Shown piece by piece: positions 2,791 through 49,800 of a DNA stretch of 64,000 nt. Source of the stretch: Okamejei kenojei (taxonomy: Eukaryota); NCBI GenBank assembly GCA_035221665.1, contig CM069137.1, positions 25,234,001 to 25,298,000 on the forward strand. Direction: 5' to 3'. Below the pieces are notes generated by a model, which was not told the origin of the DNA, ran no database searches, and was given only the letters and a program-made list of their open reading frames with translations. Every line of letters starts with the position of its first letter. The first letter of the stretch is position 1. The translations under genes were made by a program, and so were the position numbers.

Positions 2791-3110
2791 TACTGTGAGT
2801 GGTAATCACACCATTAACTGTGCATTTCATAACATTCTGAACCTTCTAAATTTGTAATCGGCAGGGCAGTACTCTGCATATCGCCAACTCATATCATGTT
2901 GTGACTCACTTTGCTGATAAAATCAGTTACTTTGAACCAGTGTACTGCTTACCAAGCAGAGTATAGTGGTTTTCCTCCGCAGTATAATTGCTGTGTACCT
3001 GTGACTTTCTTCATTTCAAAGGAGCTATTTTATGTGATGGTGCTTTCAGTACGGGGTGGCAATGGTGGTTTGCACCCTTGGTTTTCCTAGCGTATCTTCC
3101 AGTATCTATT

Positions 3111-3206
3111 GTAGACACAAAATGCTGGAGTAACTCAGCAGGACAAGCAGCATCTTCAGAGAGAAGGAATATGTGAGGTTTCGGGTCGAGACCCTTCTTC
3201 AGACTA
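3111..3206 (-). mobile_element. Penelope-derived mini-element with hammerhead-like core; 14-bp TSD
   Basis: TTCCAGTATCTATT at 3097-3110 and 3207-3220. Minus-strand core CTGAAGAAGGGTCTCGACCCGAAACCTC at 3175-3202. Confidence 0.8.
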
Positions 3207-3850
3207 TTCCAGTATCTATTCATTTCATGACAATACTACCCAAAAGTTCAATTGGTTTAGTTCTATTTTTGCAACAATCAACTGGAAATTATTACGTTTT
3301 CGAACAAGACAATAATAACTATTTCTGAACTGTTTCATGTTACTACAGAAATTACAAGTTTACAAACCTTTTCAACAAATGCTTCAATGACATAAAATGG
3401 GGTTGAGTATTCTACTAATATAAAACTACACTACCATTTGGAAAACAGAATATGACTGAAGGAGATTGGGAGGAGTAAAAACCAAAACACAATATTTATC
3501 CATGAACACAGAACCGCTTGGATTTTATTGGCAGTTTCCTATTCCAAGGTCTCAAATTCCATTTAGTTAATCATCAATTTTGGGATTCATTCTTCAAGGG
3601 TCTTATGCTGAGGTGCAATATTCAAATTTGGTTGCAAGAATCTTTGTTTGATTTTTCAGAACTTGCCATTCAAAAAAACCCCAACAATTCATGACTTTTC
3701 AACCCATCACTGAAGTGGTGAAATGTAGAGTAATATTTCTCATGTTTTGGTATCAATAGAGTTGTTGCTGTTGGCTTTTGTCAATGCAGCAAGTAGATGA
3801 ATGAAGCATTTCTGTGAATGCTACTATACAGTGTTTCAGTTACCCCTTCG

Positions 3851-4154
3851 TTTAGATTAGCTTATAGATGCTTTGGCCCACCAAATCCTTGCCAACCATC
3901 GATCACCCGCATACTTGTTCAATGTTATCGCACTTTCACATCCTACAGACTGGGGGCAATTTACACAAGCCAATTACCCATACAGACCTGCATGTCTTTA
4001 GAAGTTGGGGGGGAAACCCGAGCACCCGAAGAAAACCCACACAGTCACTGTGAGAATGTACAAACTCTGCAACAGCAGGACCCGTCGTCATGATTCGAAC
4101 CCGGGTCTGTGGCGCTACGAGGTAGCAGCTCTACCGCTGCACCGCTATACTGCC
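3851..4154 (-). mobile_element. HE1-type tRNA-derived V-SINE
   Basis: B-box GGTTCGAATC on the minus strand near 4095, V-domain-like core and TAAAC-like tail; similar to the copy at 22699-23001. Confidence 0.8.
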
Positions 4155-7100
4155 TTAATTCTGCAGATGGAGCTTTCCTTGTGTTTTGGAATAAACCGTT
4201 TCAGGGCAATACACACACAATGAGGTAATCATGGAATTCCACCTTGATGTGATGTATTTGCATCTTGTGATGTTGTGTTCAATGGAAAACAAACATCTCA
4301 TGCATTTACATATTTATTACTTTGAATGCAGTTTGCAGACCAACACCATAGAGGTATCAAATTGTTTGTTGAAAACAATCCCATGGCATATCCCTTTAAG
4401 AACAACTCTGTGATTGCAAACTAGACAGAGAAAAGAGAATATTATTTTCTATTTGGCATTCTTGAAAGTGACTGCATATACAACCCCAGTAGCAATTTAC
4501 AAAATGTTCTGTATTCTCACATCTGATTTTTTTACTGCAGTTCATTTTGTTTTGGTCAGATAAAATCTATCAAGGAAATGTCTTTGAGCACGCTGTTAAA
4601 TTGCCTGGTCTAATGAGGGTTAAATTCAGATTCAAACCATAAAAAATATTCTGTACCTTTTACATGGTAGACTGGATAAAAGGATCAAATCAAACTAAGG
4701 AGTGTCATGTTAATAAGGTTTATCATATCACCATGAATCTTAAATCATGTTCAGCAATGCCTGTTTTAATTGCATTAAACTAACAATATGTTCTTTCCAC
4801 TAATTAGGCCCTTTAGGAATGTCTACATTAAAGTATCTTTAATTTTCCTATGTACTGCTCATAAAACAAATCACAGATTCTCCCTATATGCTCACATGAT
4901 TCAACCGAAGGCTTTTGAAAATATGCAAAAATTGAAAAGACCTCTAGGAGTTATTAATTTATGAGGTTTCAGTGAATATGAAGAAAGAGCAGATTAGTTT
5001 GTACCTAGTGAGATTGCAAAGCTCTAAAGTGTCAGAATTGATGTGCCTTCTTGTCATAGTCAGGAGCTGTTGCTTAGCTTCTGAACGAGAGATCTTCAGA
5101 ACCTCAAGCTGAAATAGATATCTGAACAAAGTAAATATAGAGCAAAAGATTGGGGAGGGGATTACAAGAGCAGCAAGATGATATTGTGTGCGGCAAAAAT
5201 AAGCTCAGGTTGTTTATCGTGCAATCTGAACCTTGAGCTTGTGTTACTGCCTTTAACTTCTTCTTCTCCAGCCTTTGGTCTTTTTTTTACTAGATATTGC
5301 TCTGATTTATATTTCATAGATGCCACAGACCCTCAAAGGTTTACCAGTATTCATAATGGATTGAGATCCCAATGGAGTGATGCCACTGAGTGTTTGTAAC
5401 AATCTTTAAGACATGAAAAAATTGTAAGAAATTAAATACATGCCCAGTGAAGATGCAGTAGTAAAAAAAAAACATATACTGCCAGAAGTATAAGTGGGAA
5501 GGATTCAAAATGTTTCTCGTTATAGTTAAGTAGTAAGGTAAATTATTTTTACAGTGATTGGGATGGACAATCCATGGTTGTTTCTGCTCTGTTTTGGCAG
5601 CAATCCATTGGATTTGTTTAGGTTCCAAAGGAGTCCTATCTGAACTTTAGGTAAGTCAGAAATGAACGGAAAGCTGCCCATTATTTACTGGGTGGGCTTA
5701 GCACTGTCAGGGTCTACCCATGTAATGCAAGCCCAATGTGTTGGTTATTGATTTATACATGCTTTGATCAGCCATAACTACCCAGCAAGTAATGGTTATC
5801 ATGCCCAACTGAGGCTCAAGGCAGGATTAAGACCCAGACTTCTGAAAATAATTAATTTGGTGATAAATGATCTCTACGAAGTTCACTGCAGTGGTTCCTT
5901 ACTCTTAATCTAAAGTCAGTGAAGTAATATTACGCAGTTACTTTGATATTATAAAGCTACATATTCAAGTTCAAGCAGTTCTATTTCAAATATTTTTATA
6001 TAATCTACATCTATACTTATATAGGAAATCAACACCACAGATTATATAAGCATTATTCTTTTTATAGTACAAAAAATATATTTATAGTAGTGCGTGTGAT
6101 TTATTTGTATTTTCTCAGCATTCTTTGCAATATAAAATGGATGATTGTGCGACACAAGGAAGTGTTGTGTACCAAAGATGTCATTATAAACATAAATACT
6201 TCTGGCAACGGATCAGTACAATTTTATTGGTTGGTTTACCCCCATGCTTTTTTTTCGTAATCTTTACACCGCAGGCTGAATGTCACCTACCTGAAATGTA
6301 TCTCATTCCACTGTTCTCTGCTTCTCTGATAAGGGTTCAAAGGCAAACTCAGTGTTTCCCTGGACTGAGACTGGAAATTTGGTCGGGTGCATATGGCCAG
6401 TGAAAGGCAATAAATGGGAAGTTTAATAATGACTATTTCTAGAACTATATAACATGATAATTTATTTCACCACATTTGGAAAGGTGAAATAATGGAGTAA
6501 TTTCAAAACTAATCTGCAGAAATAACAGAGCATTTTGTCAAACTTGGAACAGGCTTGAGACAATGGAAGCATTAATATAATTCTAAAATAAACAGGATAG
6601 CCTTTTTACAGAAATTAATATTTTGGATTCAGGATATGGCCATTTTGTCAGTCATGTGGTTGAGATAATAAGTTAATTTTGGATCTATGATTTACTTGGA
6701 TCTATGATTTCATTACGACTACATACTGTTCTGATTGATATGCATTGATTGCTATGATTTAGTCCATAACTTCATTGTGTGGGAATTATATGAAGTAAAG
6801 GGATAGTGGAAGGCTAGGAAATATTGGTCTTTCTTTATCTACCAGTTCATACATGTGTGTGTTATATTTAGCAAAAACTGAGGAATTGAATGTCCACTCA
6901 TTTACTGTATATAGGCTATAAATATATGGGGTATGAACCATAAAGTAGAAATAATGGGACTGAAGCAGCCTCTGGTTCAAAAGAAAGCAAGAACAAAATA
7001 AATCAGATGAGTTGACGTTGTGCAATAAGCTTAAGCAGTTCCAATTTTATTTTCAATTTCAAAACAGATAACATGGTGGAAAAATGGTAATGCAGTTACC

Positions 7101-8837: not shown

Positions 8838-8966
8838 TGTAGAAACAAGAACTGCAGATGCTGTTTAATACACAAAAGGGCACAAAGTGCTGGAGTAACT
8901 TAGCAGGTGAGGCAGCATCTCCGGAGAACATGGATAGTTGACGTTTTGTGCCGAGACCCTTATTCA
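8838..8966 (-). mobile_element. Penelope-derived short element (degenerate hammerhead core)
   Basis: AACTGCAGATGCTG...GCTGGAGTAACT...GACGTTTTGTGCCGAGACCCTT is shared with the other copies. Confidence 0.7.
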
Positions 8967-9550
8967 ATCAAATTGAATAGCCTAATCAATCTCATGGAAT
9001 AGATGAGGCAAAATCCTCAAATTATGCAAAGTTTATCAATCTGTTGCAATCTGATCCTTCTTCTAGCCTTGTAGTGACTCAGAATGCTACACATTTCAAG
9101 GAAAATTAAGTTTGTCAGTAAATGCTGATTTGATTAACTACACCCACATCTATCGAAAGAGCAAAACAAGACACTTAGTATTTGGTCACAAGCCTTGATT
9201 TTTTTTAATGAAATAGTTGATGTGATGAAGAGTATGTGATGATTAGTTCATTGCTTGGTGTGATATTCAGATGGATGAGGAACTGGGATAAATCAGAAGT
9301 AAGATATCAGATTTCATTACCCAGGAAGCAGAGGTGGGGCTTTGGATAGATGAGTGCACTGAGAGATCTAAAGCAGAGGCTCAGATTTGGTGGACAAGGG
9401 TGGAGGCAAATATAAGAACAGAGGAGGGTCTATCGATCCCTATGTATGTTCCACCAATCTATCACCGATGATCCGTATCCAAGTTTATGAAGTCCTTAAA
9501 CTATTATATTCTTCTTGTTAAAATAAAGCCAGCTCAATTAACTGAGTCAA

Positions 9551-9644
9551 TTGAAGAAGGGTCTCGATCCGAAACGTCTCCTATTCCTTCACTCCATAGA
9601 TGCTGCCTCACCCGCTGAGTTTCTCCAGGATTTTTGTCTACCTT
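9551..9644 (+). mobile_element. Penelope-derived short element with hammerhead-like core
   Basis: TTGAAGAAGGGTCTCGATCCGAAACGTC followed by the family body ending TTTTGTCTACCTT. Confidence 0.75.
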
Positions 9645-9789
9645 AAATTATTTACGAGATAGTTTTTATGCCTTGCTATAAAGAGATGTCCTTTATCTTT
9701 TCTGAAATGTTCCAAAGCGATAAGCGATATTCTCCAGACTATTCCTTTAAAAAAATAACGTTAAAAATATGCCCATTAATTTACTCTAT

Positions 9790-9795
9790 TTTAAT
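9790..9795 (-). promoter_or_regulatory. Candidate ATTAAA polyadenylation signal of ARHGAP15
   Basis: About 380 nt downstream of the stop codon and followed by a U-rich tract on the minus strand; not verified. Confidence 0.25.
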
Positions 9796-10176: not shown

Positions 10177-10360
10177 TCACATCCCCTCGGGGTTAAACAT
10201 TTCAGCATGCTCGGTAAGTATCAGATCGATTATCTGGTTTTGGTACATCATGTTCACTGCCATATTTGAAGTTTCAATTTCAGGCCACATAAGAGTTGGT
10301 CCAAATACGATGCCTACACTTTGCGACAACATCAGATTCACCATTGCCTTTGCTATTATC
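10177..10360 (-). CDS. ARHGAP15: Rho GTPase-activating protein 15, last coding exon (RhoGAP C-terminus)
   Basis: Acceptor TTCCAG|G at 10361-10362. Encodes (K)IIAKAMVNLMLSQSVGIVFGPTLMWPEIETSNMAVNMMYQNQIIDLILTEHAEMFNPEGM*, which has the RhoGAP NxM...IVFGPTL motif and resembles the ARHGAP15 C-terminus (IVAKASKNLMSTQSLGIVFGPTLL...MVYQNQI). Phase matches the upstream exon. Confidence 0.9.
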
Positions 10361-10429
10361 CTGGAATTTAAAAAAAGAGAAAAGAGATCAACGTTTTTGA
10401 ACCAGTCAGTCAGTTTCATTCCACTAATT

Positions 10430-10603
10430 AGAACATGAAACATTGAACATAGAAAAGTACTGCACAGGATCAGGCCCTTTGGCCCACAACTTCTGTGCCG
10501 AAAATGGTGCCAAGATATACTAATCTTATTTGCCTGAACATGATCCATACACGTCCAGAACCATGTGTCTTTCTAAGAGCCTCTTAATCACCACTATCGT
10601 ATC
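10430..10603 (-). mobile_element. CR1/HER1-type LINE 3' fragment
   Basis: AACATAGAA-like tail and CAGGCCCTTTGGCCCAC terminal stem typical of elasmobranch CR1 ends. Confidence 0.65.
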
Positions 10604-11213: not shown

Positions 11214-11800
11214 TGGACTAATGTAATCCATATTTGAGTAATATTCCATTGCAAATTAAAATTATAGGTCAGATGGTACAATTTGCTGCATCAATAGCCA
11301 TCCTAATTTATTGAGGTAGAATTATTGGCAATCAATGACAAATTACAAACAGTAATTTGTTGACTTTCAGGAACTTAGTTGAGACTTTTCAAACATGCTT
11401 TGCAAAGTCCCGAGGCAATGAAAATCTATGACTTTATAAAAAAAGATTTTTGTCAGAAAGTTACCTCCAAATCCCAGAAAGAGAAGAAAATGAACCAACT
11501 TCACTCTAAATTGTTAATTTTTTTGTGATATTTTCAAGATAAAAAGCTCTCACAAATGATTTACAGATGAGAGAGCACTTTGCATTTTACTCAGTTTAGT
11601 TTAGAGATATAGCACGGAAACAAGTCCGCAGCGACCAGCAAACCCTGCACATTAACACTATCCTACACACACAAGGGACATTTTACATTTATAACAAGCC
11701 TGTACATCTTTAGTGTGGGAGAAAACCAAAGATCTCGGGTAAACCCCACGCAGGTCATGAGGAGAATGTACAAACTCCGTACAGACAAGTATCCTTCGAA

Positions 11801-11897
11801 GGTTACACAAAAAGCTGGAGAAACTCAGCGGGTGCAGCAGCATCTAAGAGGCGAAGGAGATAGGCGACGTTTCGGGTCGAGACCCTTCTTCAGACTG
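11801..11897 (-). mobile_element. Penelope-derived mini-element; 10-bp TSD
   Basis: ATCCTTCGAA at 11791-11800 and 11898-11907. Confidence 0.85.
11866..11893 (-). ncRNA. Minimal type-I hammerhead ribozyme core (Penelope type)
   Basis: CUGAAGA-A-GGGU(CUCG)ACCC-GAAA-CG-UC: both catalytic boxes, stem II, palindromic ACGU stem III and a GUC cleavage triplet. Stem I is weak. Confidence 0.6.
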
Positions 11898-12499
11898 ATC
11901 CTTCGAACCCAGCTCTCTGGTGCTGTAAGGCAGTAGCTCTACGCTGCACCACTAATGCCACCCCTCTGCTATAGAACACTACGCCAAGTCTGACAGTAAA
12001 GCTGTGGAACCAGTTGTGAAATTACTTTTGGAGATCAGCTGATGCCCCGCAATCCCACCTTAAATGTTATTGTTTTGAGCAACAGTGTACGCCTGGAAAC
12101 TATTGTAAGATGTGAAGACATCAATGGTAATCCTAAATAGGAAGGTCCAATAATGTTCTGAAATATTAACAGCAATTCCTGAACAATTCTGGAAGCAAAT
12201 TAATTTTAGGAACCCACACTATCCCTCTGTGTGCCAATTGGTGGCCACCAATCTTTGACAGTAAATAATTTGCTGGCATTGAGGAAAGAACAGGATATGG
12301 AACGGATTTGATTGCTTATGGACATGGTGAACCATATGATCTTTTTCATCCATTGACAATTCAATGGATTTTTAAATGCATTAATTCACACAATGCGAAT
12401 ATATCAGCGTTTATTGTCCATCTCTAACTGACCCCTGACCTGGTTTACTACGTCATTTCAAAGGGCACAACATCAATGAGTCTGGAGTTACATATATAC

Positions 12500-15480: not shown

Positions 15481-18400
15481 GTAGGTATCTTATTTAGATA
15501 AATCCAGTCAAAAACAACGAGGTAATACGAAATCTAAAACTAGTGAACTTTTAAACACATATATAAAAAATACAAATATAACCGATGTTTGGAGGATTGC
15601 AAATCCGACAGGCAAGGAATATTCATTTTATTCATCGGTACACAAGACTTCCTCACGTATAGATTATTTCCTGGTAGACACAAAATTAATTCCGTATACT
15701 CTCAACCCAAAATACCACACAAATACGATTTCAGATCATTCCCCCCTAACTTTTTAAAAAAAATAGAAGGCATGTCTAAGAATACATCGTTCTGGAGGTA
15801 TAACCCCCAAATTTTAAAAGACCCGCAAGGGACTATATATCTAAGACAGCAAATGGATCTTTTTTTCAAAATAAATGATACACCAGACACACCACCTACA
15901 TTATTATGGGAATCTTTCAAAGCTTTTATTAGAGGTGTTATAATCTCATACCAAGCCTTTAAGAATAAAAAAAAATAAGAATGAACAACGGCAGCTAGAG
16001 GAACAAATTAGACAATTACATATAGATAATGCTAAAGACCCGTCCATGGATAAACACAATAAAATATTAATACTAAAATTCAAATAAAATAAATTACTAT
16101 CAGAGAAAGTTATAACATTATTCCAAATGACAAGACAGGAACAGTTTGAATTTGGGGAGAAGCCTCATAAACTTCTCGCACGCCAATTAAAAAACCGAGA
16201 AAAGGAACACACGATTTCAAAGATTAAATCAAACAAAGGGGAAGTATTAACATTACCGAATGAAATTAATAAAAGATTTGTGCAATTTTATGAGAATTTG
16301 TATACATCCAAAATGACAACAGACACCAACACAATCACTGAGTTTCTGGATAATTGCAATCTTCCCAAACTAGAATTGAAGGAACAAGAGGAATTGGGAG
16401 CACAAATCTCAAATAAGGAAATGGAAGAAACAATATTCTCATTAAAAAATGGAAAAACACCAGGCCCCGACGGATTTAGTAATGAATTCTACAAAAGTTT
16501 TTACGATATATTTAGTCCTCGTCTACAGAAAATGTACACACAGCTTTCAGTAGAACAAAATATTACCTGATACTGTACTAGCAGAATACGATTACATGTA
16601 CAGGGTCTTGGTGAGACCATAAGTTTTGGTCTAATTGCCATAGAGGGAGTAGACTGATGGAGACTGTCTTATGACTGATAGACTCGGTTTTATACTCTCT
16701 GAATCTTATAGAAACTTACAAAATTCTTAAGGGGTTTATAGGTCACCAGCTATCACACAGAGAGTGGTGAGTCTCTGGAACTCAGTTGAGGCCAGTTCAT
16801 TGGCGTCAGAGGGTAAATACATGATCAAAAAAATGGACTCCTGCACCTAATTTCTATGTTTCTATGTAAGATTAAGTAAGTACGCCATTAAACTAATACA
16901 TCCGGATCAAACGGGGTTTATCCCTAAGAGAAATTAATTTAATAATTTGAGACGTCTGCTGAATATAATGCACTCACACCAAACTAAAGATCCAAATCTC
17001 GCAATTATTTCGCTGGATGCAGAGAGAGCATTCGATCAGGTTGAATGGAAGTATATGGTTAAGGTACTGCAAAATTTTCAACTGGGAGAGAATTTCATTC
17101 AATGGATTAAATTAATATATAATAAGTCAACGGCCAGGATATTAACTAATAATATTTTATCCACGAAATTTCAAGGGGTAATAGACAAGGCTGTTCATTA
17201 TCACCATTGTTATTTGCCCTCATAATTGAACCACTAGCGGAAAGTATTAGAACTCATCCGAATATCCACGGATATAAGACAAAGTATTCAAACAATAAAA
17301 TATCATTATACGCTGATGATGTACTTTTGTACATCACAAAGCCTCATATCACTATACCCAATATTTTAAATTTAATTGAGGATTTCGGTTCATTTTCAGT
17401 TTACAGAATAAACTGGAATAAAAGTGAAATCATGTCAATAAAACCGAAAGATTCTATACATCTCATACAATTTCCTTTTAAAATAGCTGGGGAAAAATTT
17501 TAATACTTGGGCATTGAAATTACTAGAAGATATCAAGGCATGTTTAAAGCAAACTATAACCCTGTACTTAATTTAATTAAATTCTGGAAAACGCTCCCGA
17601 TGTCCTTAATAGGCTGAATAAACGCCATAAAAATGATTTTTCTACCACAAATTCTATACTTGTTCCAATCAATCCCACTATATCTACCCAAAAAAGTTTT
17701 TTTTTAAAATGGACTCAGATATTACAAATTATATTTATGATTATAAGACCCGTAGAATACAAAAACCACACCTGAATAAACCCAAAGTAGTAGGGGGATT
17801 AGCACTCCCTAATTTTATGTATTATTATTGGTCGGTAAATATTAGAAATATGATTCAATTGTTGGATAATGCTCTTCATCAATTGGAATGGATCATTATG
17901 GAAAAAGAGGACAGCCACCCCCCCCCCCCCCCCCCCCTTTAATATTGGTGCAATCCTTCTTTCACCATTGACGGTGAATAATACAAACTACAACAAAAAC
18001 CCAATTATACATAGTACAATCAGAATTTGGAAACAAATAAAATACAATTTAAAATTAAGAAACTTATCTCTCCTATCTCCTAGTGCTAAAAACCCTATGT
18101 TTAAACCCTCAATTATAGACAAAGCATTCATACAATGGGAAAGAGCAGGAATTAAAACTTAGGGAGATACGGGAAATGATACGGGAAAACTATTATAATT
18201 TAAACAATTACAACTAAAATACAATCTGGGTAACAATCAGTATTTTAAATATTTCCAAATATGTGATTATTTGAAAAAACATGCACATGAATTTCACAAA
18301 ATGCCATTAGACTTACTAGATGAAGTAATGAATACAAAGGCGGAATCACCAAATTTAATTTCACATATATATAATATTATACTAAATGCAGTAATACCAA

Positions 18401-19312
18401 CAACGGAAGGTATTAGAGGTGAGTGGGAAAATGAACCAAGCATAAAAATTTCCAATGAAAGGTGGAAAGAATACTTATTAAATGTGCACAAATGCTCAAT
18501 TAATGTAAGACACACTTTAATGCAATCTAAAATTATACATAGATTATACTACTCAAAAACTAAATTAAATAAATTTTTCCCTAACATTTGTGATAAATGC
18601 CAGTCAAGAAGCTACTATAGCACACTCATTCATCTTTTGTACAAAAATTCAAAGGTTTTGGATTGAAATCTTTGAAATTTTCACAAAAGTGTTTAAAATA
18701 AAAATGACACCAAAGCCAGAATGGATTATTTTCGGAATGACAGAAGGTAGTTCGGAATTAAATGCGTATAAAAAGAATTTATTTGATTACGGCTTAATAA
18801 TAGGAAAAAAACTAATCTTAAAATTCTGGAAAAATGTTCCTATACCAACATTAAATATGTGGATTTCAACTATGTTTGAAACAGTACATCTGGAAGATAT
18901 GAGACGCCGCCTGGAAGGAAAATCAGAACGCTTCTTTCAGGCGTGGTCTGCATTTGTAGAATTACTACAAAGATAGGGTGCAGGAGTACCTCGGGCCTTG
19001 GTGGGGGGGGGGGGGGGGGGGGGGGGATGAAAAACTATTGAGTTGATGGATTCCTTTTGCGAGATATATATAACATAGTAACTGGCCTTTTTTTTCCTTT
19101 TCCTTTTTTTTAGGGTCTATCTCTTAACCCCCTTTCTCTAATTCTTTGACCAAGAGTTTCTTCTTCCCTTTGGCACGCTCTTTCACTATCACAACTCAAT
19201 TCACCTATTTCGCTCTCTTTCTTTCTTTCTATTCTTTTTCTTTAAAAGCCATAAAATTATGGGGTACAATGATTGTAACACTATATGTGTGAAGTACATT
19301 GATGCATTTACC
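15481..19312 (+). mobile_element. 5'-truncated L1-clade LINE (degenerate ORF2: APE C-terminus, RT, Cys-rich knuckle, 3' UTR)
   Basis: DVWRIANP...YSFYS...SRIDYFL...SDHSP (APE); KTPGPDGF; DQTGFI; ISLDAERAFDQVEW; YADD at 17309-17320; GGLALPN; CDKC...H...C. ORF ends at 18976. Several frameshifts and stops; A-rich sense strand; G-tract in the 3' UTR. Confidence 0.92.
16597..16866 (+). mobile_element. Multiply deleted CR1/HER1 3' end embedded in the L1
   Basis: Collinear short CR1 blocks (GGTGAGACCA, CCATAGAGGGAGT, CTTATAGAAACTTACAAAATTCTTAAGGGG, CACACAGAGAGTGGTGA, CTCCTGCACCTA, TTTCTATG). Confidence 0.7.
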
Positions 19313-21588: not shown

Positions 21589-21751
21589 ATATGGATTGCA
21601 AGACCGGTGCATGTGTGGTGTAAATTGAAAACTAGTGATTTTATCTTATTCAGAGACAATTCTTATTAGTTCTTATTATGTTAAAGATTATCTACATTCA
21701 TTTTGCATTGGGGGAAGTTTCTGAATCGGATACGCCTCTACTTCATTAGAA

Positions 21752-25312: not shown

Positions 25313-25449
25313 AATTGCCATCATGAAATAATTAGTTTCTCTTTTATCATTTTCTAGTTAACATGGGACTATCTACATAAGAATGGGGGTAATGTAATAA
25401 GAAAATACGAATTGGGAGAAAGAGTAGGTCGCCCTTGAGTTTGCTATTA

Positions 25450-25573
25450 TCTCTGGAGAAAAGGAATAGGTGATGTTTGGATCGAGACCCTTCATCAGAC
25501 TCGTTGAGATGCTGCCTGACCTGCTGTTACTCCAGCATTTTGTGTCTATCTTTGTTGTAAACTAGGATCTGCT
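25450..25573. mobile_element. Penelope-derived fold-back fragment
   Basis: Family motifs in both orientations (GAGACCCTTCATCAGACT / GAGATGCTGCCTGACC). Confidence 0.7.
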
Positions 25574-26084: not shown

Positions 26085-27615
26085 AATATTTTACTGTCAT
26101 ATTCATTGGCACCAGAACAATACAATTCTTACTCACTGGAGGGAATATTAACGCATCAACATTACAAATACTTATATGATAAACAATAATGCAACAAATG
26201 ATCTGTTATACCAGGTGATCATACCATAATAGTGCAAGCCGAACGACGTAGTATAACCTTTAACAAACTCCATAGTATGATGGTGAGGTAGGGCTGTGCA
26301 GGGTGGTTTAAGAGCCTCATGGCTGATAAGAAGTTGTTCCTGAACTTGGAAGTAATGGTTTTCAGGCACCTGTATCATCTTCCTGATGGTAGCTGTGAGA
26401 TGAGAGCATGGTTGAGGTAGTGCGGATCTTTGATGATATTATGCTCCTTTCTTGAGGCAGGGCTTCCTATAGATTCCTTCAATGGTGGGGAGGTCAATAT
26501 CTGTGATGGTCTGGGCAATGTCCACCACTTTCTGTAGTCCCTGTGATCCTTGGTGTTCAAGTTACCAAACCAGGCTGTGATGCAAAAAGTCAACTTGTTC
26601 TTCATCATACACCCGTAAAAGTTTGTAGGAGTATTCAACGACATGCTGAATCACCACAAACCTTTGAGGAAATAGAGGTATGGATGACCTATCTATGTGA
26701 TTTTATCAATGTACTGAGCCCAGGATAGAGATGTGCAAGCAGAGGAACTTAAAGATGTTGACTCTTTCCATCAATACCCTGCTGATGAAGACAGGTTCAT
26801 GGGCCCTCTGCTTTCCCTTTTTGCTCAGCTCCTCGGTCTTGCTGGCATTGAGAGCAACATTGCTATTCTGACAGTACTTAACCTGATTATCAATCCCCCT
26901 CCTGTATTCTGATTTGTTACAAATTATTCATTCAACAATGGTAGTATTGTCAACAAATTTAAAGATGGTGTTGCAGCTGTGTTTGGCTACACATCATGGA
27001 TTTAGAGTAAGTAGAGCAGGGAACTAAGCACATAACCTTGAGGTGTCCCTATACTAATAGTCAGTGAGTAAGTAGTGTTGTTGGGAATTCATACTGCTTG
27101 AGGTCCGCTGATAGGAAGTCAAGGATCCAGTTGCATAGGGATAAATAGATCCCCAGTTCCATGAACTGATGAGTTTAGAGGGTGATGGTATTGAATGTTC
27201 AGCTTTAGTCAATGAAGAAGGGTCTCGACCCGAAACGTCACCCATTTCTTCTCTCCAGAGATGCTGCCTGTCCTACTGAGTTACTCCAGCATTTTGTGTC
27301 TATATGTAGTCAATGAACAACAGCCTGGTGTGCTTATTCCTATAGTCCAAGTGGTCCAGTGCAGAATGGAGAGCCAGAAAGATTGCATCCGCTGTTAATC
27401 CATTGTGGCAGTCAGCAAATTGGAGTGGGTCTTGATCCATACAAAGACTGGAGTTGATATGCATCACAACCTACTTCTTGATGTACTTCAATCACAATAG
27501 ACCTGAGTGCCACCATTTGGTAATTGTTGGTCTATCACTTTGCTCTTCTTGGACATCGACATTACGGGTATCCCTTTAAAGCAGGTGGAGACCTCAGAAC
27601 GTGGTGGTGAGAGGT
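26085..27615 (-). mobile_element. Rex1/Babar LINE, degenerate RT and 3' end
   Basis: GTPQG (27033-27048), KFVDNTT (degenerate FADD, 26943-26960), CITAWFGN, IIKDPHY...LPSGR. Confidence 0.8.
27217..27306 (+). mobile_element. Penelope-derived mini-element; 11-bp TSD; nested in Rex1
   Basis: TAGTCAATGAA at 27206-27216 and 27307-27317; core ..GAAGAAGGGTCTCGACCCGAAACGTC. Confidence 0.85.
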
Positions 27616-27674: not shown

Positions 27675-27802
27675 TTGAGGGTTCTGACCCCAAACATCAT
27701 CTATTCTTTTTCTCTAGAGATGCTGCCTGACCTGCTGAGTTATTCCAGCATTCTGTTTCTATCTTTGGTAAAAGCCAGCACCTCCAGTTCCTTCCTACAC
27801 AC
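27675..27802 (+). mobile_element. Penelope-derived short element, degenerate
   Basis: AGAGATGCTGCCTGACCTGCTGAGTTATTCCAGC...TTCCTTCCTACAC. Confidence 0.7.
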
Positions 27803-27867: not shown

Positions 27868-28702
27868 TGTGGGATACGATCCCGAAATCAAAGCGAGAAG
27901 CCAGGTGTATTGGGAAGTACCTTTTATTATGTCCTTCCGTGTCGTAAGGAAGTCCACGAGAGAAAGATGGCACCCAAAACCCTTGCCTTTAATCCCTCTG
28001 GTTAAGGGCCCCCTCTGAACTGAACCATTCCCGTGCCGAGGGGTTTGACAGTTAGGATGGCCTGACCCTTGAGAGCCGCCACAGGACCCCCCCCCCCCCC
28101 AGAACCCGAGGCACGAAACACACCGGCGGGCGCACAACCCGGCCGGACCGCGTGCGGAAGTTAGCGGACCAAGGGGCTGGCGGAGGCACAGGTGGAGGGA
28201 CAGGTGGAGGGACAGGTGGAAGGACCAGCGGGAGGACAGGTGGAGTGACAGGCGGAGGGAGCCATGAAGGGGGCCGCCCTCGAGGCCGAGGTCGGGCAAC
28301 CAGCACCGGCTGGTCAATGTCCAGATGTGCCGGCTTCAGCCAGTCAATCGACACAGCCTCTGGCCGGACCCCCATGTCCAACACAAAGGTCATCTGCCCG
28401 TGTTCCAGCACTCGGAACGGGCCCTCGTACGGCCTCTGGAGTGGCGTCCGGTGGGCATCAAGGCACAGGAAAATACACCTGGTACCAATGTGGGGTACGA
28501 TCCCGAAATCAAAGCGAGAAGGCAGGTGTATTGGGAAGTACCTTTTATTATGTCCTTCCGTGTCATAAGGAAGTCCACGAGAGAAAGATTGCACCCAAAA
28601 CCCTTGCCTTTAATCCCTCTGGTTAAGGGCCACCTCTGGGCTGAACCATTCCATTGCCGAAGGGTTTGACAGTTAGGATGACCCTAATTGGGAGCCGCCA
28701 CA
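27868..28702 (-). mobile_element. Internally deleted Gypsy LTR retrotransposon (two LTRs, PBS, integrase C-terminus, PPT); 4-bp TSD CTAT
   Basis: LTRs 28489-28702 and 27868-28083 with TGT...ACA ends; CTAT at 27864-27867 and 28703-28706; PBS TGGTACCAGG at 28478-28487; G-run PPT next to the 3' LTR; GPF motif PLQRPYEGPFRVL...VSIDWLKPAH. Confidence 0.92.
28183..28260 (-). repeat. 12-bp tandem repeat encoding (VPPP)n in the Gypsy integrase tail
   Basis: GGAGGGACAGGT-like units, about 6 copies. Confidence 0.8.
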
Positions 28703-29770: not shown

Positions 29771-29918
29771 TAAGAAGATAGATACAAAAAACTGCAGTAG
29801 GGTATCGACCCAAAACGTCACCTATTCCTTTTCTCCAGAGATGCTGCCTGACCTGCAGTTACTCCAGGTTTTTGAGTCTGCCTTTGGTTTAAACCAGCAT
29901 CTGCAGTTTCTTCCTACG
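29771..29918 (+). mobile_element. Penelope-derived mini-element with inverted 5' piece; 12-bp TSD (1 mismatch)
   Basis: CAAAGATTGAGG at 29759-29770 and CAAAGATTAAGG at 29919-29930. Confidence 0.75.
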
Positions 29919-31000: not shown

Positions 31001-31004
31001 GCCC

Positions 31005-36146: not shown

Positions 36147-36327
36147 GAGACACAAGGAACTGCAGATGTTGGTATAAAATACAGTGCTGGAGTAACTCAG
36201 CGTGTTAGGCAGCATCTCTGGAGGGGATGGATAGGCAATGTTTTAGGTCGGGAATTTACTTCAGACCCTTGTCTTCCAGAGATGCTACCTGACCTGTTGA
36301 GCAACTCCAGCACCTAGTGTTTTTATC
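36147..36327. mobile_element. Penelope-derived fold-back mini-element; 15-bp TSD
   Basis: AATCATATTGTCCTG at 36132-36146 and 36328-36342; arms GTGCTGGAGTAACTCAGC...CTCTGGA and TCCAGAGATGC...CTCCAGCAC. Confidence 0.85.
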
Positions 36328-36581
36328 AATCATATTGTCCTGTTCCACCTACTCATCAATGAAAGTCAATATATTTTTACTACACTTTTTGGTCACAGCA
36401 GTTGAAACAAAAGGAAATAGGTAGAAATGTGGAATGTAAAGTGTTCATATATTCTGGATATGATTCAGCTTTAATATGATTAGATATTAGATTGGTCAGT
36501 TCAAGGATGCCAGTGTACTCAGCCTGGCAAAGTTGAAATTAGTTCCACTCATTTGCAACCATTTGCCTCAAAAGTGCACAT

Positions 36582-36716
36582 GACATGAATTGAACGGATG
36601 TGATCTGCCAAATCTGGACTGGAGCAGAAACTGGTCTGGAATTGGTCCCAACAGCAGTTGTAAGTGATATTCTTTCCTGAAGTAGTGCTTCCATGCCCAT
36701 TTATCAGCGCTGGAGT
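36582..36716 (-). pseudogene. AEBP2: Captured coding fragment of AEBP2 (first C2H2 zinc finger region)
   Basis: 45 open codons [45 protein letters not shown], closely resembling vertebrate AEBP2 ([46 protein letters not shown], recalled). Flanked by the 11-bp direct repeat TCAAAAGTGCA. Confidence 0.85.
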
Positions 36717-36746
36717 AAAAGTCAAAAGTGCAGGGTAAGTGCCTGC

Positions 36747-37100
36747 TAGAGTCATAGAGTCATACAGGGTGGAACTTGCCCACAGCGACAAGATGCCATA
36801 TCTACACTTGTTCCACCTGCTTACACTTGGCCCATATCCCTCCAAACCTGTCCTATCCATGTATCTGTCTAATTGTTTCTTAAACATTGCAATAGTCCCT
36901 GCCTCAACTATCTCCTCTGGCAGCGCGTTCCATACACCCACCACCCTTTGTGTGAGAATGTTACCCCTCAAATTCCTATTAAATCTCTCCCCCTCACCTT
37001 AAACCTTTGTCCTTTGGTTCTTAATTTGCCTTCTCTATGCAAGAGACTCTGCATTGATCCGATCTATTCCTCTCATGATTTTATAAACCTGTATAAGATC
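36747..37100 (-). mobile_element. CR1/HER1 LINE 3' fragment
   Basis: MRGNILTQRVVGVWNALPEEIVEAGTIAMFKKQLDRYM; (CATAGAGT) tail. Confidence 0.85.
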
Positions 37101-39777: not shown

Positions 39778-40920
39778 TAAGGAACTACATATGCTGGTTT
39801 ACAGGCAGAATCTCTGGAGAACATGGACAGGTGACATTTTAGGTTGGGACCCTTCTTCAGAATGATTTTGGTGGGGGTGGGCAGGGAAGAAAGCTGGAAG
39901 AGATGACGGACAGGAGAAAGTCTGGCTGGTACAAGGTTGATATGGGTGAGGGGATTTTTGATAGGTTGATGGTCAGACAAAGGGGGTGGGGGTAGTTATC
40001 TAAAATTCGATGTTCAGATTGTTGGATTATAAACCACCAAAGAATATGAGGTGTTGTTCCTCCAGTTTGTGTGGCCTTAGTCTGCCAATGGCGATGGTGC
40101 AAGGCAAAAAGGACGGTATGGGAATGGAAAGATGACATAAAATGGTTAATAATTGAGAGACCCAGAAGGCCTTGGAGGATCAAGCACTTGCTCTCAGTCC
40201 GCTAAGGCCTACTAGATCTCCTGGATGCTAATAATTTAACTCCTCTTCCCATTCCTAACATGACCTTTCTGTCCTCAGCCTCCTACATTGCCAGAGTGAG
40301 GCCACATGCAAATTGGAATAACAGCACCTCATATTACACTTGGGTACTTACAACCCAATGAGTATGAATATTTGAATTCTCCAATTTTAGGTAAGCACAA
40401 CCCCCACCCCTTACTTCTATCCCCACATCCAACGCTTCTTTCCCCTAGCCCCTGACCTTTTCCCCACCTGAACCTGCACATATTTCTCTCCTCCCATTGC
40501 ACCTAATTCCTTCTTCTAGCTTCACTATTTGTAACTCTTCAATGTTTTTGTCTCACACATTCTATCTTTTCATTACTGGCCTTTATCCAGCCATCTGCCT
40601 GTAAAAACACCTCATCACCTGTGTCAGGCTATTACAAGTATAGGAAGGAACTGCAGATGCTGGTTTCCACTGAAGGTAGACACAAAATGTTTGAGTAACT
40701 CAGCGGGTCAGGCAACATTTCTGAAGAAAAGGAATAAGTGGCGTTTTAGGAGACCCTTCTGTCTATTGTCCTGCTCTTCCTTTCTTCCAGCTTTCTTGCC
40801 CCCCCCCCCCCATCCCCCACAATCAGTCTGAAAAGGGTCCTCTCCGAAGAGTCATCTATCCATGTTCTCCAGAGATGCTGCCTGATCACGCTGAATTACT
40901 CCAGCACTTTGTGTCCTTTG
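39778..40920. mobile_element. Penelope-like element remnants: two GIY-YIG C-terminal/pLTR segments in inverted orientation
   Basis: Plus strand 40280-40380 encodes LHCQSEATCKLE*QHLILHLGT-like GIY-YIG end; an inverted homolog lies at about 40000-40090. Both run into the short-element family terminus. Confidence 0.75.
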
Positions 40921-43444: not shown

Positions 43445-43878
43445 AAGCTGTCAGCTTTGGCTCAATGATAGCAGTTTTGCCTCTGAGTCATGAGGTTGTG
43501 TTTTAAACCTCTACTCCAGAGAACGGAGCTTGTAAACTGGCTGACAGTTTAGTGGAGATAATAAGGAAGCACTGCACCATCTTTCTGATGCATTTTTAAA
43601 TCGAGACACTGTCAACCTTCTCTCAGTAGGATGTAAAAGATCCCATGCTACTATTCAAACCAGAGCAGCAAGGTTGTCAAGGCCAGTATTTATCTCTCAA
43701 CCAATATGGCGAAGTAAACAGATTACAGGGTCATTTAATTCTTGTCATTTATGGGACTTTGCTGTGTATAAAGTTGGCTTCTATGTTTTCTTGGGTTACA
43801 AGCATTAATCTTCAAGAATTGGCTGTGAAGTGTTTTGGAACATAACAAAGTTGTGAAAGATTTAATACAAATTATTTA
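43445..43878 (+). mobile_element. Near full-length ancient DeuSINE (SacSINE1-like)
   Basis: tRNA head TGGCTCAATGATAGC...GCCTCTGAGTCA; Deu core GGATGTAAAAGATCCCATG.TACTATT...TATTTATCTCTCAACC...GGGACTTTGCTGTG; tail GTTGTGAAAG. Confidence 0.75.
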
Positions 43879-46159
43879 TTTCTCTTTCATATTGAATTAC
43901 ACCCACAAAGAGTTTAAGGATGACTTCCCTTAAATGATTTTCCTGTTGTGAAATACTTCTATCTGATTTGACAAATTTGAAAGAAGTTTAAAAGTTAAAT
44001 GTCTTATGAGTTCAGTTAGTACAACAGTCAAATGTTTTTTTTCAAAAATCCATCTAGCTACAAAAGAGAAAGCATTGTTACTAGTATGGAAACGCAACTG
44101 TTACAATTAGCGTCATTGAACTCTGACCTGCTCCCAATTCTTAGCAGAATAAATCACATTGTACGGACTAATTGATTCCATGCAATAGCAGCAATTGAAG
44201 GTGGAAACCAGAAAGCAGGATGTTTATTAATGAAGGTTCATTAATCAAGATTGACAATAGTTAAGAACGACAAACATGGAAGGCGTAATGTTAGTTAGAA
44301 TAGATATTAAGTATTAGGGGAGCTAATGCAGTAACAATAATGGCCAAACACATGGCACGGAGGTGGTATGGAAGCCAACATAAATGGGCAACATCCCAAC
44401 ATGTTTATGCTGCACTGAAGATTCTGTGAGTAATTAATTATTATCTAATTTGAACCATAATACACAGGATATAGCAGTTGGTTACTGATGCTTTCTTGCC
44501 CTTCGGCACACCTCATTAGGGTCATAAGTACAGCGGTTGTGTTGAAGGTCAGTTAGATAGGTTTGAGATCACTTTTACACAGGATTTTCTTTTGTGCACA
44601 GAAGATCTTGCTTCCCTGCCTCCAGCAACCCCTGACGATCGGAACATCGTGAGCACTGAACAATGCAAACTTGTAATCACGTACTTTGTGTTTAGTTGAC
44701 GTTTACATAAAATTGGCACATTTACAAAGTCTACACAATACACATCTTAGAAAACTGTGTGGAGGTTACCTTCTGCCTCAAATCAATTAAACATCAGGAT
44801 TGTTTAAGAAATATTCAACTACATTTTCTCATTTTTCACCACAGGAAATAAACTGGCACCGTCATATGTATTTATGTTGGAAAATAATTACATCACATTT
44901 AATTGTGCAATCTCTCAAATGGCTTTGATTATACCACATAACACGATTCTTCATTAATCTTGGTGCTAATTTTTATTTCTTGCGAACATGATAGCAAATT
45001 TGAAACAATACTTCATAAAGTACATTAAAATAGCTAAAAGATGTCAATGGGTGTACATTAAAACTTTTCTATAATATGTAAAAGGAATATCCCTGGAGTT
45101 CTTTCTGAATAAGTTCATTTTTCCCCCTTGACATAAACATGTGCCTAAAAGAGTTGATGTTGTTTCTACCAGACATATGAAACAAACATTTCACATTTTT
45201 ACAGATGCTTTTAATTTGGGAGTGGTTTCCAATGCAATTTAGATCAAAAGTATCCATGTAGACAATCCAGAGTTGCTTAATTCCATGCCTTTCCAGGATA
45301 AAGTTGAACCACATCAGTAGGTATGGGTGTGACACCCACAATACTGGATGCACTCCCAAATACTGGAGGCACTCCCATAAAGTATCCCAGAAATATTCGA
45401 GGCAGGCATCCATCTGTCTTTATAAAGCTAAAGAGCTGTTAGAAATATGTTGTCTCAGATAGTCTATTTTTATCTTAAAGGTAACATGACGTCACCAGCA
45501 TGAGAGCAAATTAAGCATGATAATGACCAATGCAACTCTAAAGATGGTGGCTTAAATAGATAAACAATGATTAGCAGCTGTCTTGCACCTCAGAAGCATA
45601 ATTCTCATTGTATTTTCTGGTAAGTGAGGGTTTTCAATATGTATCAACAAATTCACTGATGTCATTTCATTTCATGCTCTCTTATTTTGACACTTTTGGG
45701 TTCATTCTATTGCTCTTCTGTAATCAATTTCTTACCATAGAAAGAAAATTAAATATTTAAACATCCCATGATTTATCAGTTAAATGATCAGATTATTTTG
45801 AACCAATAAATGAACCTAAAATGGTTCCACTGCTTCATATTAATCGATTTTCCATTATAACACGAGGTAGTCTGCCACAACAAGAAGGAAGCACCCTTTT
45901 GCTAAAAGCATTTACAGCATACATATGGGTGCAGCTCTAGAGATTGTCAGTAATAGAACTCAACCTCTGTTCTTTCCATAGTCATGTGATTGCGGGTGTG
46001 GGAAAGTGAGTGCTGACAATGGGGGCGAGAGAGAATGTCATCAAGTAATTTCAGTAGTTTTGTAGGCTGAGAATTCTGAGAGGTATAGGAAATAAACTTC
46101 TACAAATGCTCTCTCAGTTGCAATGGAGCTATTGGGAGCCAACATTTGAAGTTGCCATC

Positions 46160-46437
46160 GGCACAATGACTGGTAGGATTGTTGTCTCACAGTGCCAGAA
46201 TCTTGGTTTTCATCTTGATCTTGGATGCTGGCAGTATGGAGTTTGCATGTTCTCCCTGTGACCACTTGGATTTCCTACAGGTGGGTTTCTAGTTGGCCTC
46301 TGTAAAATTGCCCTTATGTGTCGGAAGTCAGTGAAAAAGTGGGATAATACAGAACTAGAATGGATGATCGATGATTGGTGTGGACTCCATGGGCAGAAGA
46401 GTCTGTTTCCATGCCGTATCTCTAACCTAAACCTAAA
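46160..46437 (+). mobile_element. HE1-type V-SINE, internally deleted
   Basis: GGAGTTTGCATGTTCTCCCTGTGACC core; (CTAAAC) tail. Confidence 0.75.
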
Positions 46438-46772
46438 TATTAGCTCGATTGACAAAGGGAATGGTCCCTCATTGCAAACTGTTCCACAGCTAATTACATA
46501 AATCAATAATATTCATATCCTCCAACAAAGACTTGTAATACAATAGGGGCATCTGTTAACCATCTATTTGTTGGTAAATTTCTCTTTGTACATAACTCAA
46601 AAGAAAATGGTAGATGACACTGTCACAAAAATAATTATCACATGCGAACAACAATTGGAATTCAGATATATGACTTTTGAGCTTTAATGGAGGTAATGGG
46701 TATCCTCTATATAATCTGTAGCCAACTTATCAGTTACTCAGTTATTCACCAGATTTTCACCCAAAATAAGAT

Positions 46773-46867
46773 AGACACAAAAAGCTGAAGTAACTCAGCG
46801 GGCCAGGCAGCATCTCTGGAGAGAAGAAATGGGTGATGTTTCGGCTCGGGACCCTTCTTCAGCCTTC
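46773..46867 (-). mobile_element. Penelope-derived mini-element; 17-bp TSD
   Basis: TTCACCCAAAATAAGAT at 46756-46772 and 46868-46884. Confidence 0.85.
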
Positions 46868-49800
46868 TTCACCCAAAATAAGATGGAGGATTAGCAAGTG
46901 ACTCTGACTCTATGTGCTAAATCACCAAAAACAATTTAATAACATAAATCAAAATATCCAAATTGCTCATTTGTACTATAACTATATGACAATTAACAGA
47001 TAACTCAGCTTGAATTCAAATCAGCACACTTGAAGATGGATGAAAATTAGCTTCATTGCATCTTTTGGTTTTGTCCCTTCACAGGTCATTTACCTCCTGA
47101 AAGATTAATGGATATGGCTCCCTGGTAAATTCAGAAGTTGATCACAATGCATAATGAGGATGGTCTTGCAACATGATGCTTGCCGAGTAAGGAAAGCACT
47201 CTCTTCCTGCAGAAGAGCCTCCTTTAAAAGTATTAAACATTTTGAAATTGGATACTCCTGGAAGTTGCAGGGCATTTGGGTGGGGTATCTTTCCTTGTTT
47301 ATTTCAAACTGATGTTTTTCATCAAAATGTCTATCTATATACAAAATGTCTCTATACCTACCTTTGCCCTCAGCATTTCATCAAAATGTTCATCTATATA
47401 TCTTTGCCCTCAATTAAACATTTCAGGTGAAATTATATGCATCAAGCCTACTTTCGAGATAAATAAATGCGAAACATTTCAGTATACAAATCTGTACAAA
47501 AAAAATCCCAATCTTGAACAAGAGTTCCAAATACTGCTAACTGTATTGGAGTGACATTGTGTTTTCATATGGTCTGAGCATTAGGCCACTTTAAAGGATT
47601 GCAGTTTATGATTGCAGTAATGCTGTTAGTATTCACAGTCATTAGATATTGTGACACCAACACTAACTTCTGGAGTACTTAAATATGGATTTAAAGATGG
47701 AAATCCAAAGGTTGTCATGAATTATCCCCTGCATTATGCACTGACTTGCAATCTTCCACAGTATGATCTCCCTGTGTCAATGAACTCATGAAAACTTTAG
47801 GTTTTAAAAAACTTTTTTCACTGTAAACATCCTTAAAGTTTATACATTGATGTATGATATAAGTGACATTTTGGTGCTATTCTGAGCCCATAATTATAGA
47901 TCACCAATCTGTCTGGAACTAAATATCTAATTTTATATGTGGTTTGCAATTTTCCTGGAAAAAAATATATTCAACCATGATGAATTTGAAGGTAACAAAA
48001 ATATATATATATATATTTTTTTTTTAATACAGAGCATGGTATTTCACTATCTCGTATGAAATTTCAGTGGCTGCTTACTTACATTGATGATATTACAATC
48101 ACTGGATGCCAAAGGTCCTTTTGAATTTACACCTGTCACAACCAGTGTTGGGAAAGAGGCCATGCCATAGAACTGGCAAGGTAATTGTAGGGAACTTTTT
48201 TAAAAGTCAGAATTGTTACTGTCCCTTCATCAATGACTGCAAAATCCATTCTTAAATATTAATTAGGGACAACTCCCCTCTCCCAGGACCCATTTATAAA
48301 GTTCATTATTGCTGAAGAGTTGGATGATTGTAGACTTCAAGACCAAGAATCATCAACTAAAATAACAACATGCATCCCTGATTAGTTGTAAGAAGTATGC
48401 AGAATACTCATGGCAACATGTGTAAATGATGCACAGCCCAGCCGAGTTGAATGTTCAAGAAACATACCTTAAAAAGCTTTTCTTCCTTTTTCCTGACCAC
48501 AAAAGGTATCACTATTGCTTCGCCATTTTCCAATATTAATTCAACACATTCCCTTCCCTCATTCACAAGGACCCCTTCTCTCCTCACCTTTCCACTCCGC
48601 TCCTCCCCTCCCCATCTCCCAGGATTTTACGGAGGAAATGAATCAATCCTCAGCTCCCTTGCTTCAGGCACACTATGGTAACGCAGTTAATTCATGACAC
48701 ATGAAAGAGGGTCTGAGTAATTCCACATAAAAGTGAGCAATTGTACACCGGTTACATGATAAAATAACGAGTGGCAATTACTGTAATGTAAAAGGTCAGA
48801 TGGGAAAGGTAGAAGCTGAGTTGTCTGTTTTGTTGTTTTGCATAGAAGATAGATATAAATCTTCACCTAGCTGATATCTTAATCATAATCTTGCATATCT
48901 CTGACAGGTTTTTTTTCCATGAGCTAGAGTATTATTAAAGGAAATGGGTGTTGAAATGATTACGATGTTGTTTAAATACTATCGACCTTCAAGACCATTT
49001 CACTTGTACTCTCCCCACCTACTTTCGGGGTTGGACAGTTATGTCAAACAACTATCTCTGAGAAGGAAATTATACAAAACCCAGATATTGCTAAGGTATA
49101 TTGCTTGAATAGATCAGCTCGATGGCTTTCCAATATTATCAGGAAATACTATTAAATGCATAGGCAGTATATCTGGGCTAATGCATCACTTAGGCAACAA
49201 CCTGAGTTGCTACTTTTTTTATATGGTCTTGATTAGTTTGAAAAAGCTTCAAAATTTCTGCTGCCCAATATATTCTTCTTTAATAAGTGTACAAATAATT
49301 CATTTGTTTCAGTTTGAAACATTTTATAATCAAGCCAATCAAAAGTTAACTAAAGTATCAGTGTTCAGTGTAAATATCAAGGAAAGAGCTTTCATGTCGC
49401 AGCCCTGTTTCCACCAATTTTTCCACCACCACGTACAAGAAGCACAAGAAGCGCAATGCAGACATCATTGTATGCAGATGCCGAGAAGTGTGCTCATCTC
49501 TGGCTGAACAACTTCTAATCTTGTGTGTGGATTCGACAAGAAGAAGTGTCAGTTAATGCTAATTAAATTAAATTTATTTTGCATTTATCAATCTGTCTAT
49601 ATTTTAAATGTGATAATCTATGATATGCACAAAAGGTGTCTGCAACTTTTCTCACCTTGTTTATACTTGGAATGTATTTGTCATTTGACACTTTGACTCA
49701 CGTCGAGCTGCTACAACATTTAGTTAGGAGAGTGGTTCTGTGAATATTTACATGTGATTTTCCAATATAACATAAAATTATAACAATAATATAATAATAG

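Follow-up and report, generated by a model that had tools for sequence, protein, structure and literature searches.

What are the four short inserts of 90 to 97 bp with hammerhead-like boxes that lie in a 64,000-nucleotide stretch of the skate Okamejei kenojei (assembly GCA_035221665.1, contig CM069137.1, positions 25,234,001 to 25,298,000 of the forward strand; hereafter the window): a small retroelement in their own right, or the end of a larger one? A first reading of the letters (the sequence-only reading) had favoured a discrete retrozyme- or short interspersed element (SINE)-like family of Penelope origin. Our analysis favours the second answer, with a probability that we put at roughly 0.55: the inserts would be the terminal 90-97 bases of a Penelope-like element (PLE), made by a reverse transcriptase (RT) that starts within the RNA and copies to its predicted 5' end.

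All four inserts were re-located in the window with perfect direct repeats on both sides, 14, 10, 11 and 17 bp long, and poly(A) is absent from each of them (Table 1). Since repeats of at least 10 bp at both edges occurred in only 4 of 1500 random 95-bp intervals, a null that may include real inserts, we take the flanking repeats as target-site duplications (TSDs), which also support the proposed insertion in trans by an endonuclease and RT. As had been proposed, two inserts are nested in other repeats: three paralogous copies of a short repeat, each of which has the target once, can be aligned with the empty site of 11801, and the insert at 27217 splits a decayed reverse-transcriptase-like frame. 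A Pfam scan of the frame around 27217 gave no hits; we presume a resemblance to Rex1-type RTs. The boundary placed at or just upstream of the CTGAAGA box needs two amendments, as the edge of 27217-27306 lies inside the box (it begins GAAGGG, with TGAA coming from the target) and 46773-46867 has five additional bases (GAAGG) ahead of it. At the 3' junctions, microhomology with the target (5 bases at 46773 and about 4 at 11801) accounts for the few-base scatter of 3' ends. We also observed AGTCAATGAAG or AGTCAATTGAAG at the 5' edge of two unrelated copies (9545-9560 and 27206-27225), where the target resembles the element start.

By using a profile built from 16 copies, we obtained 28 hits in the window, of which 23 at E<1e-9 were retained and 5 weak ones excluded. 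The four inserts are thus 4 of 23 copies of one module, which together cover 3.55% of the window. When the arm ends were assigned by hand on the module model, the 3' ends of the 23 arms fell mainly into two groups, with 10 at model positions 103-113 (inner ends), 10 at 140-148 (tail ends) and 3 elsewhere. What had been described as longer variants at 29771, 36147 and 53518 do have TSDs (13/15, 15/15 and 8/8 bases, respectively), but they are not longer single copies: in each of them two arms of the module stand head to head in inverted orientation. Each of the 5 complete inverted pairs combines a tail end with an inner end, an outcome with a chance of about 0.03 at even odds by hand calculation, and inverted 5'-truncated partner arms with the tail on one end only are a known layout of PLEs (PMC3846280, PMC8557442). 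Two further partner arms have atypical ends near position 68-70, outside the tail/inner pattern; arms 25449-25501 and 50293-50322 finish near AGAGATG (model 68-70), possibly a third, minor 3' end.

The sequences adjoining its longer copies identify the module as the 3' terminus of a Penelope-like element. Three copies extend upstream via a pyrimidine-rich untranslated region (UTR) of about 139, 208 and 313 nt to the last codons of a protein, namely the decayed C-terminus of a GIY-YIG endonuclease, which bears out the Penelope origin that had been claimed. With a query built as a three-piece alignment of the long-copy codons (a poorer four-piece alignment was discarded), 67 proteins matched at E<=0.001 among 1.84 billion proteins, with a best value of 4.9e-14, and the source names of 6 of the 7 looked up were Leucoraja, Rhinoraja or Hypanus. 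GIY-YIG matches, weak and under the Pfam cut-off, were present in 3 of 15 homologues scanned, and skate and ray proteins with such weak hits share 46-54% identity with the decayed C-terminal half at 40157-40387. Read by eye, several homologues have a YIGET motif and a CxxC linker, of the form CX2-5CxxC in P0024, P0027 and P0035; P0024 also has RT-like motifs without a Pfam hit. The window copies end short of the linker region and do not include the RT. Because a CxxC linker marks the Neptune and Nematis clades (PMC8557442), the endonuclease homology and this linker together indicate a Penelope-like 3' end that is probably of the Neptune clade, an assignment made through the homologues. Negative results were obtained when Pfam was scanned directly on the decayed endonuclease DNA (0 hits), when a word-indexed protein search was made with a 51-residue endonuclease fragment (no match), and when viral contigs, metagenome contigs and prokaryote genomes were scanned for exact patterns. 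In gene models of skate or relatives, P0005 and P0046 (neuromedin-U receptor and RecQ5-like protein), a fused piece of the endonuclease is present, either as an annotation artefact or as an exonised copy.

We then considered the edges in the contigs of four runs, aligned to the long copy at 49750-50409 (120,000-135,000 records in each of three runs and 11,843 in the fourth). Both 3' ends recur there. Loose ends at 49928 were counted in at least 1540, 1545 and 1151 contigs (runs X5, X6 and X18, respectively), and those at 49963-49964 in at least 1089+1299, 1037+1256 and 818+1040 contigs; these two places were the top loose ends among those listed in all four runs. The 35-36 nt between them are the PLE tail, an optional segment of 30-40 bp in PLEs. 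Around the inner 3' end of the copy at 29839-29906, pairing of AGATGCTG with CAGCATCT of the tail would form a stem. Such a stem is a candidate for RT binding and would be missing from tail-less copies.

The 5' ends are clustered as well. Sixteen of the 23 arms begin within 16 nt round the first hammerhead box, 4 begin downstream (all of them partner arms) and 3 upstream. Four null models were each drawn 20,000 times, and such clustering came up in 0 draws. In the contigs of the four runs, depth was 7-35-fold higher in the two hammerhead bins than in the best upstream bin, a step that may in truth be nearer to the 16 to 3 of the window, because summed contig depth does not give copy number and overcounts branched high-copy parts, and because upstream UTRs vary by subfamily. 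Beyond the edge, five well-matching upstream bins stayed within about 2-fold over the next 220 nt; five others, which are lower where the long copy at 49928 has private changes, were excluded. The recurrent, non-random boundaries of the sequence-only reading are thus upheld, as the breakpoints are far from uniform. LINE-like elements leave mostly short 3' ends. Given that most PLE insertions are 5'-truncated (bioRxiv 10.64898/2026.07.22.740005), random truncation debris with no preferred edge might have been an adequate account, but the 5' clustering exceeds all four nulls, and in four runs depth drops in a step and then levels off; we give this explanation next to no credence.

The common 5' edge reads TCAGTCT, which fits what we take to be the initiator consensus. 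Tandem joints in the contigs restart at 50060 and 50063, next to the A at 50061. Taking the edges together, the reading that we favour runs as follows. The module lies 139-313 nt past the endonuclease stop, has two 3' ends 35-36 nt apart and has a sharp 5' edge at TCAGTCT. By analogy with the anole element, the two 3' ends would correspond to two internal RT start sites; in vitro, two internal start sites bound the tail of the anole PLE, product length tracks the template's 5' end, and hammerhead cleavage is dispensable (PMC11167929). PLE transcripts start from an internal promoter in the upstream pseudo-long terminal repeat (pLTR) (PMC2377424, PMC6765202). Here, the transcript of a tandem element would begin at the initiator-like TCAGTCT of the upstream pLTR, so that the RT start sites would be present twice in the RNA. 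Starting at the 5'-proximal pair of sites would then give run-off copies of about 95 or 133 nt, and starting at the 3' pair the rarer long copies. A staggered cut by the GIY-YIG endonuclease may leave the TSDs of 8-17 bp, and priming from both strands may yield the head-to-head pairs. The hammerhead would be a passenger that sets neither boundary, and most copies would later decay.

Several observations weigh against this account, as does the possible shrinking of the depth step mentioned above. First, the initiator match is weak alone (YYANWYY occurs 12.9 times per kb and TCAGTY 0.75 times per kb), and the 5' edges, with their spread of about 16 nt, are not among the top loose ends listed. 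Second, CAG|TCTG fits a splice acceptor equally well, and in Drosophila a splice acceptor coincides with the front edge of the hammerhead, 46+75 nt downstream of the start (PMC4209133). Third, the in vitro precedent is a Poseidon element, the present one being Neptune-like, and inverted pairs are the subject of a proposed antisense self-priming model (PMC3846280). Fourth, no full-length autonomous copy, full open reading frame or RT was seen in the window, and two sequence types are without a long partner there; with only three long copies to compare, the absence of partners means little. Fifth, head-to-tail joints exist: a 133-136 nt unit is so joined at two positions, with 24-30 contigs for each, and a 99-nt unit in 7-13 contigs (three runs), although only a few per cent of tail ends carry such joints in the reads. 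Apart from this, the tail end at 49928 is joined tail-to-tail in about 200 contigs a run to an arm of opposite orientation, at the inner end of that arm (49961-49970), and a tail end is joined to a new head in about 55 contigs a run. New copies seem to prefer the tail end as a landing site, which one would expect of an endonuclease able to recognise its own tail.

In another account of the 5' edge, full-length RNA is copied from its 3' end and the RT stops or switches template at a hot spot at the hammerhead front (the splice junction, the near-palindrome CAGTCTG or a bound protein), where most copies would therefore end. Microhomologies at 5' junctions would suit it, with TGAA at 27217 and 46867 and CAG/CTG in the pair at 53911, and so would the CAG that follows a pyrimidine tract, which matches a Drosophila intron ending at helix I (PMC4209133). 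Other observations fit it poorly. A predicted hairpin pairs the module front with a pyrimidine tract about 50 nt downstream, so that a stall caused by structure should occur at the 3' base of this hairpin and not at its 5' edge. Moreover, splicing of the template should give the copies an upstream exon in common, and the edge copies show none. Upstream depth is flat beyond the edge. We therefore regard a stop or switch at the hammerhead front as possible, though rather unlikely.

Is the ribozyme itself the maker of the edges? Minimal PLE hammerheads have an extra base after CUGANGA (9/10.1), a G10.1-C11.1 pair, a palindromic ACGU and a very short helix I (PMC4209133), and the majority sequence of the module and the copy 11801 have this minimal type-I layout, as had been claimed. 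However, the intact core with its ACGT palindrome was found only in 11801, that is in 1 of 16 aligned copies and 1 of 4 inserts, the palindrome being lost in 3111 and 46773. The sequence-only reading had named a lack of excess conservation in the CUGANGA and GAAA boxes among the outcomes that would refute it, and the boxes are indeed no more conserved than the rest, with mismatches to the majority in 15/143 non-CpG core cells against 118/953 downstream cells (p=0.58). Stem II is 88% paired and helix I has about 2 bp, but no covariation beyond shuffles was detected in any named helix, single-strand folds of 8 copies were not more stable than shuffles (z from -1.44 to 0.71), and an Rfam scan of the window at E<=1 returned 0 matches. 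The predicted cut falls 28 nt after C3, inside all four inserts, and 32 nt within insert 11801, so that a cut there would set neither edge.

These data bear directly on the proposal of a true retrozyme, where tandem dimers would self-cleave, circularise and reinsert, the ribozyme thus defining the unit. The minimal hammerhead layout and the rare head-to-tail joints speak for it, as does the origin of animal retrozymes from pLTRs (bioRxiv 10.64898/2026.07.22.740005). In addition, the partner arms 50293-50322 and 53529-53617 begin a few bases from the predicted cut, at 50293 and 53617, and cleaved RNA may have served as a template in a minority of events. Against it, neither a head-to-tail tandem array nor a circular permutation was found in the window, the cut is internal to the inserts, and the intact core is confined to the single copy mentioned above. 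Furthermore, dimer folding gave -6.7 kcal/mol for the active fold and -19.7 kcal/mol for a rival fold, the active fold thus being predicted as unfavourable, and helix I is minimal. A retrozyme in this strict sense seems very improbable to us.

The broader claim of a discrete retrozyme- or SINE-like family was not supported by the comparison of copies either. In a tree of 16 copies and 91 columns, with strong support on 0 of 13 branches, a single clade of the four inserts was rejected (p-AU 0.008), and the inserts intermix with copies that are long, tailed or paired. The two edges are shared by inverted pairs, tail-bearing copies and both UTR types, and the longer copies run on into the Penelope 3' UTR and endonuclease. 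The view of the sequence-only reading can be put as a self-propagating mini-element, in which copies of 95 or 133 nt, each with an internal promoter and an RT loading site, would be transcribed from many loci and reinserted in trans, like a SINE of Penelope. In its favour, there are 16 short modules to 3 UTR-linked copies in the window, their excess in depth is 7-35-fold, the edges are sharp, and unit head-to-tail joints occur for both the tailed and the 99-nt forms. Conversely, the rejected clade and the intermixing just described, the identical edges of inverted pairs and the catalytic boxes without extra conservation do not fit, and the anole template needed sequence to +172, past the start sites, which short copies would lack (PMC11167929). 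Hence such a mini-element is conceivable but doubtful. The same low standing applies to a bolder form of it, by which the 133-nt module would be a complete minimal retroelement with initiator, hammerhead and RT loading stem. Some run-off copies would then be re-transcribed and reinserted, and dimers would give self-cleaving circles, making it a poly(A)-less polymerase II mini-element at least tenfold over its parent and about 3% of skate DNA.

The features of the window that belong to the element are collected in Table 1.

Table 1. Copies of the PLE 3' module and related features, in window positions (position 1 is the first letter of the window).
Feature	Position	Strand	Remarks
Tail-less end module, 96 bp	3111..3206	-	TSD 3097-3110 / 3207-3220 (14 bp); broken palindrome in stem III
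Tail-less end module, 97 bp	11801..11897	-	TSD 11791-11800 / 11898-11907 (10 bp); in short interspersed repeat; sole intact core
Hammerhead core CTGAAGA-A-stem II-GAAA-CGTC	11866..11893	-	predicted cut after 11866; layout as in PMC4209133
Tail-less end module, 90 bp	27217..27306	+	TSD 27206-27216 / 27307-27317 (11 bp)
Tail-less end module, 95 bp	46773..46867	-	TSD 46756-46772 / 46868-46884 (17 bp)
Solo tail-bearing module	8846..8974	-	profile match
Solo tail-less module	9550..9647	+	sequence type of 11801; without clear TSD
Solo tail-bearing module	27677..27801	+	profile match
Decayed solo module	52910..52985	-	profile match
Head-to-head pair, atypical ends	25449..25572		model positions 68 and 132
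Head-to-head pair	29774..29918		26-bp inner-ended arm (-) and tail-ended arm (+); TSD 13/15 bases
Head-to-head pair	36147..36327		tail-ended arm (-) and inner-ended arm (+); 15-bp TSD
Head-to-head pair	53518..53717		tail-ended arm (-) and inner-ended arm (+); 8-bp TSD
Head-to-head pair, joint CAGTCTG	53785..54005		tail-ended arm (-) and inner-ended arm (+); TSD 10/12 bases
Head-to-head pair	56901..57042		inner-ended arm (-) and tail-ended arm (+); candidate TSD 9/13 bases
Long copy, inverted partner side	39778..40201	-	decayed GIY-YIG C-terminus KLEEQHLIF, 139-nt UTR, hammerhead 39860, internal deletion, tail
Long copy, second subfamily	40157..40918	+	decayed GIY-YIG C-terminal half 40157-40387, 3' UTR, hammerhead 40828, inner end
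Nested tail-ended module in long copy 40157..40918	40637-40761	-	profile match
Long copy	49928..50295	-	endonuclease end NIDFSNFK-stop, about 208-nt 3' UTR, TCAGTCT, hammerhead, then both 3' ends
Ends within long copy 49928..50295	inner 49963-49964, tail 49928	-	short inverted arm 50293-50322
Initiator-like TCAGTCT (A at 50061), common 5' edge	50057..50063	-	also reads as CAG splice acceptor after pyrimidine tract

Two larger arrangements adjoin module copies. A 16-bp perfect direct repeat (window 53491-54075) bounds a 553-bp block that contains two inverted pairs; we considered 53507-54059 as an older copy hosting both pairs but found no support for this, as the leftover 111 bp match the module at chance level (0.6 bits). 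Directly after the module 27677-27801, a block at 27868-28683 has been inserted, in which 195-bp direct repeats 621 bp apart enclose an integrase-end-like fragment and a 12-bp tandem run.

Elsewhere in the window, 10177-10572 (-) looks like a RhoGAP exon, from the C-terminal end of the domain (Pfam E=0.003), and 36549-36998 (-), which reads CCWDQFQTSFCSSPDLADHIRSIHV and is without a Pfam hit, is presumably akin to an AEBP2 zinc-finger exon. An L1/Tx1-like LINE, frameshifted, occupies 15547-18976 (+), with an RT fragment at 17153-17500 (Pfam RVT_1 E=7e-15). GC-rich open frames with internal repeats of 84-87 bp and 43-61 bp lie at 179-2070 (-) and 57766-58377; we assume that they are like the first open reading frame region of DIRS-like or LINE elements.

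Solo minimal hammerheads that stem from truncated PLEs have been described before, as have tails and inverted arms. In a literature that lacked most subscription papers, and outside Repbase and Dfam, we found no paper on the skate element or one that describes a fixed 5' edge. Should this sharp edge mark the start of the RNA, hundreds of thousands of genomic copies would record both the RT start and the template end, and this would explain the abundance of solo minimal hammerheads in animal genomes without selection on the ribozyme. It would also be a reason not to tally such copies as a SINE family or as ribozymes that are active.

Among described systems, the element can be set beside the endonuclease-positive (EN+) PLEs of the Neptune clade (PMC8557442, PMC3846280). 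Like these, it has a GIY-YIG C-terminus followed by a pLTR, an optional tail (30-40 bp there and 35-36 here), head-to-head arms with one tail end and TSDs of about 8-17 bp, and its skate and ray homologues have a CxxC linker; it differs in that most copies are modules of fixed length (95 or 133 nt) whose 5' edge is sharp. With the anole Poseidon element PAc (PMC11167929) it shares two 3' ends bounding the tail, an AC-rich start site with a hammerhead about 120 nt upstream of it, targets rich in AT and a ribozyme that is apparently unneeded for insertion. However, PAc belongs to another clade, no open reading frame starts in stem II here, and fixed-length genomic run-off products are not among the features described in the available part of that paper. 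The solo minimal hammerheads of truncated PLEs (PMC4209133) likewise have the extra 9/10.1 base, G10.1-C11.1, a palindromic stem III and a very short helix I, and are mostly single copies or opposite-strand pairs; that account, in its available part, names no cartilaginous fish and leaves insertion edges and TSDs unmapped. Finally, non-LTR retrozymes (PMC7229834; bioRxiv 10.64898/2026.07.22.740005) resemble the modules in their type-I hammerhead, non-coding nature, pLTR origin, dispersed monomers and TSDs of more than 4 bp. Yet retrozymes form tandem arrays of mostly 150-450 bp units and circular RNA (PMC7229834), whereas the skate copies are single or inverted and their predicted cut does not define the unit.

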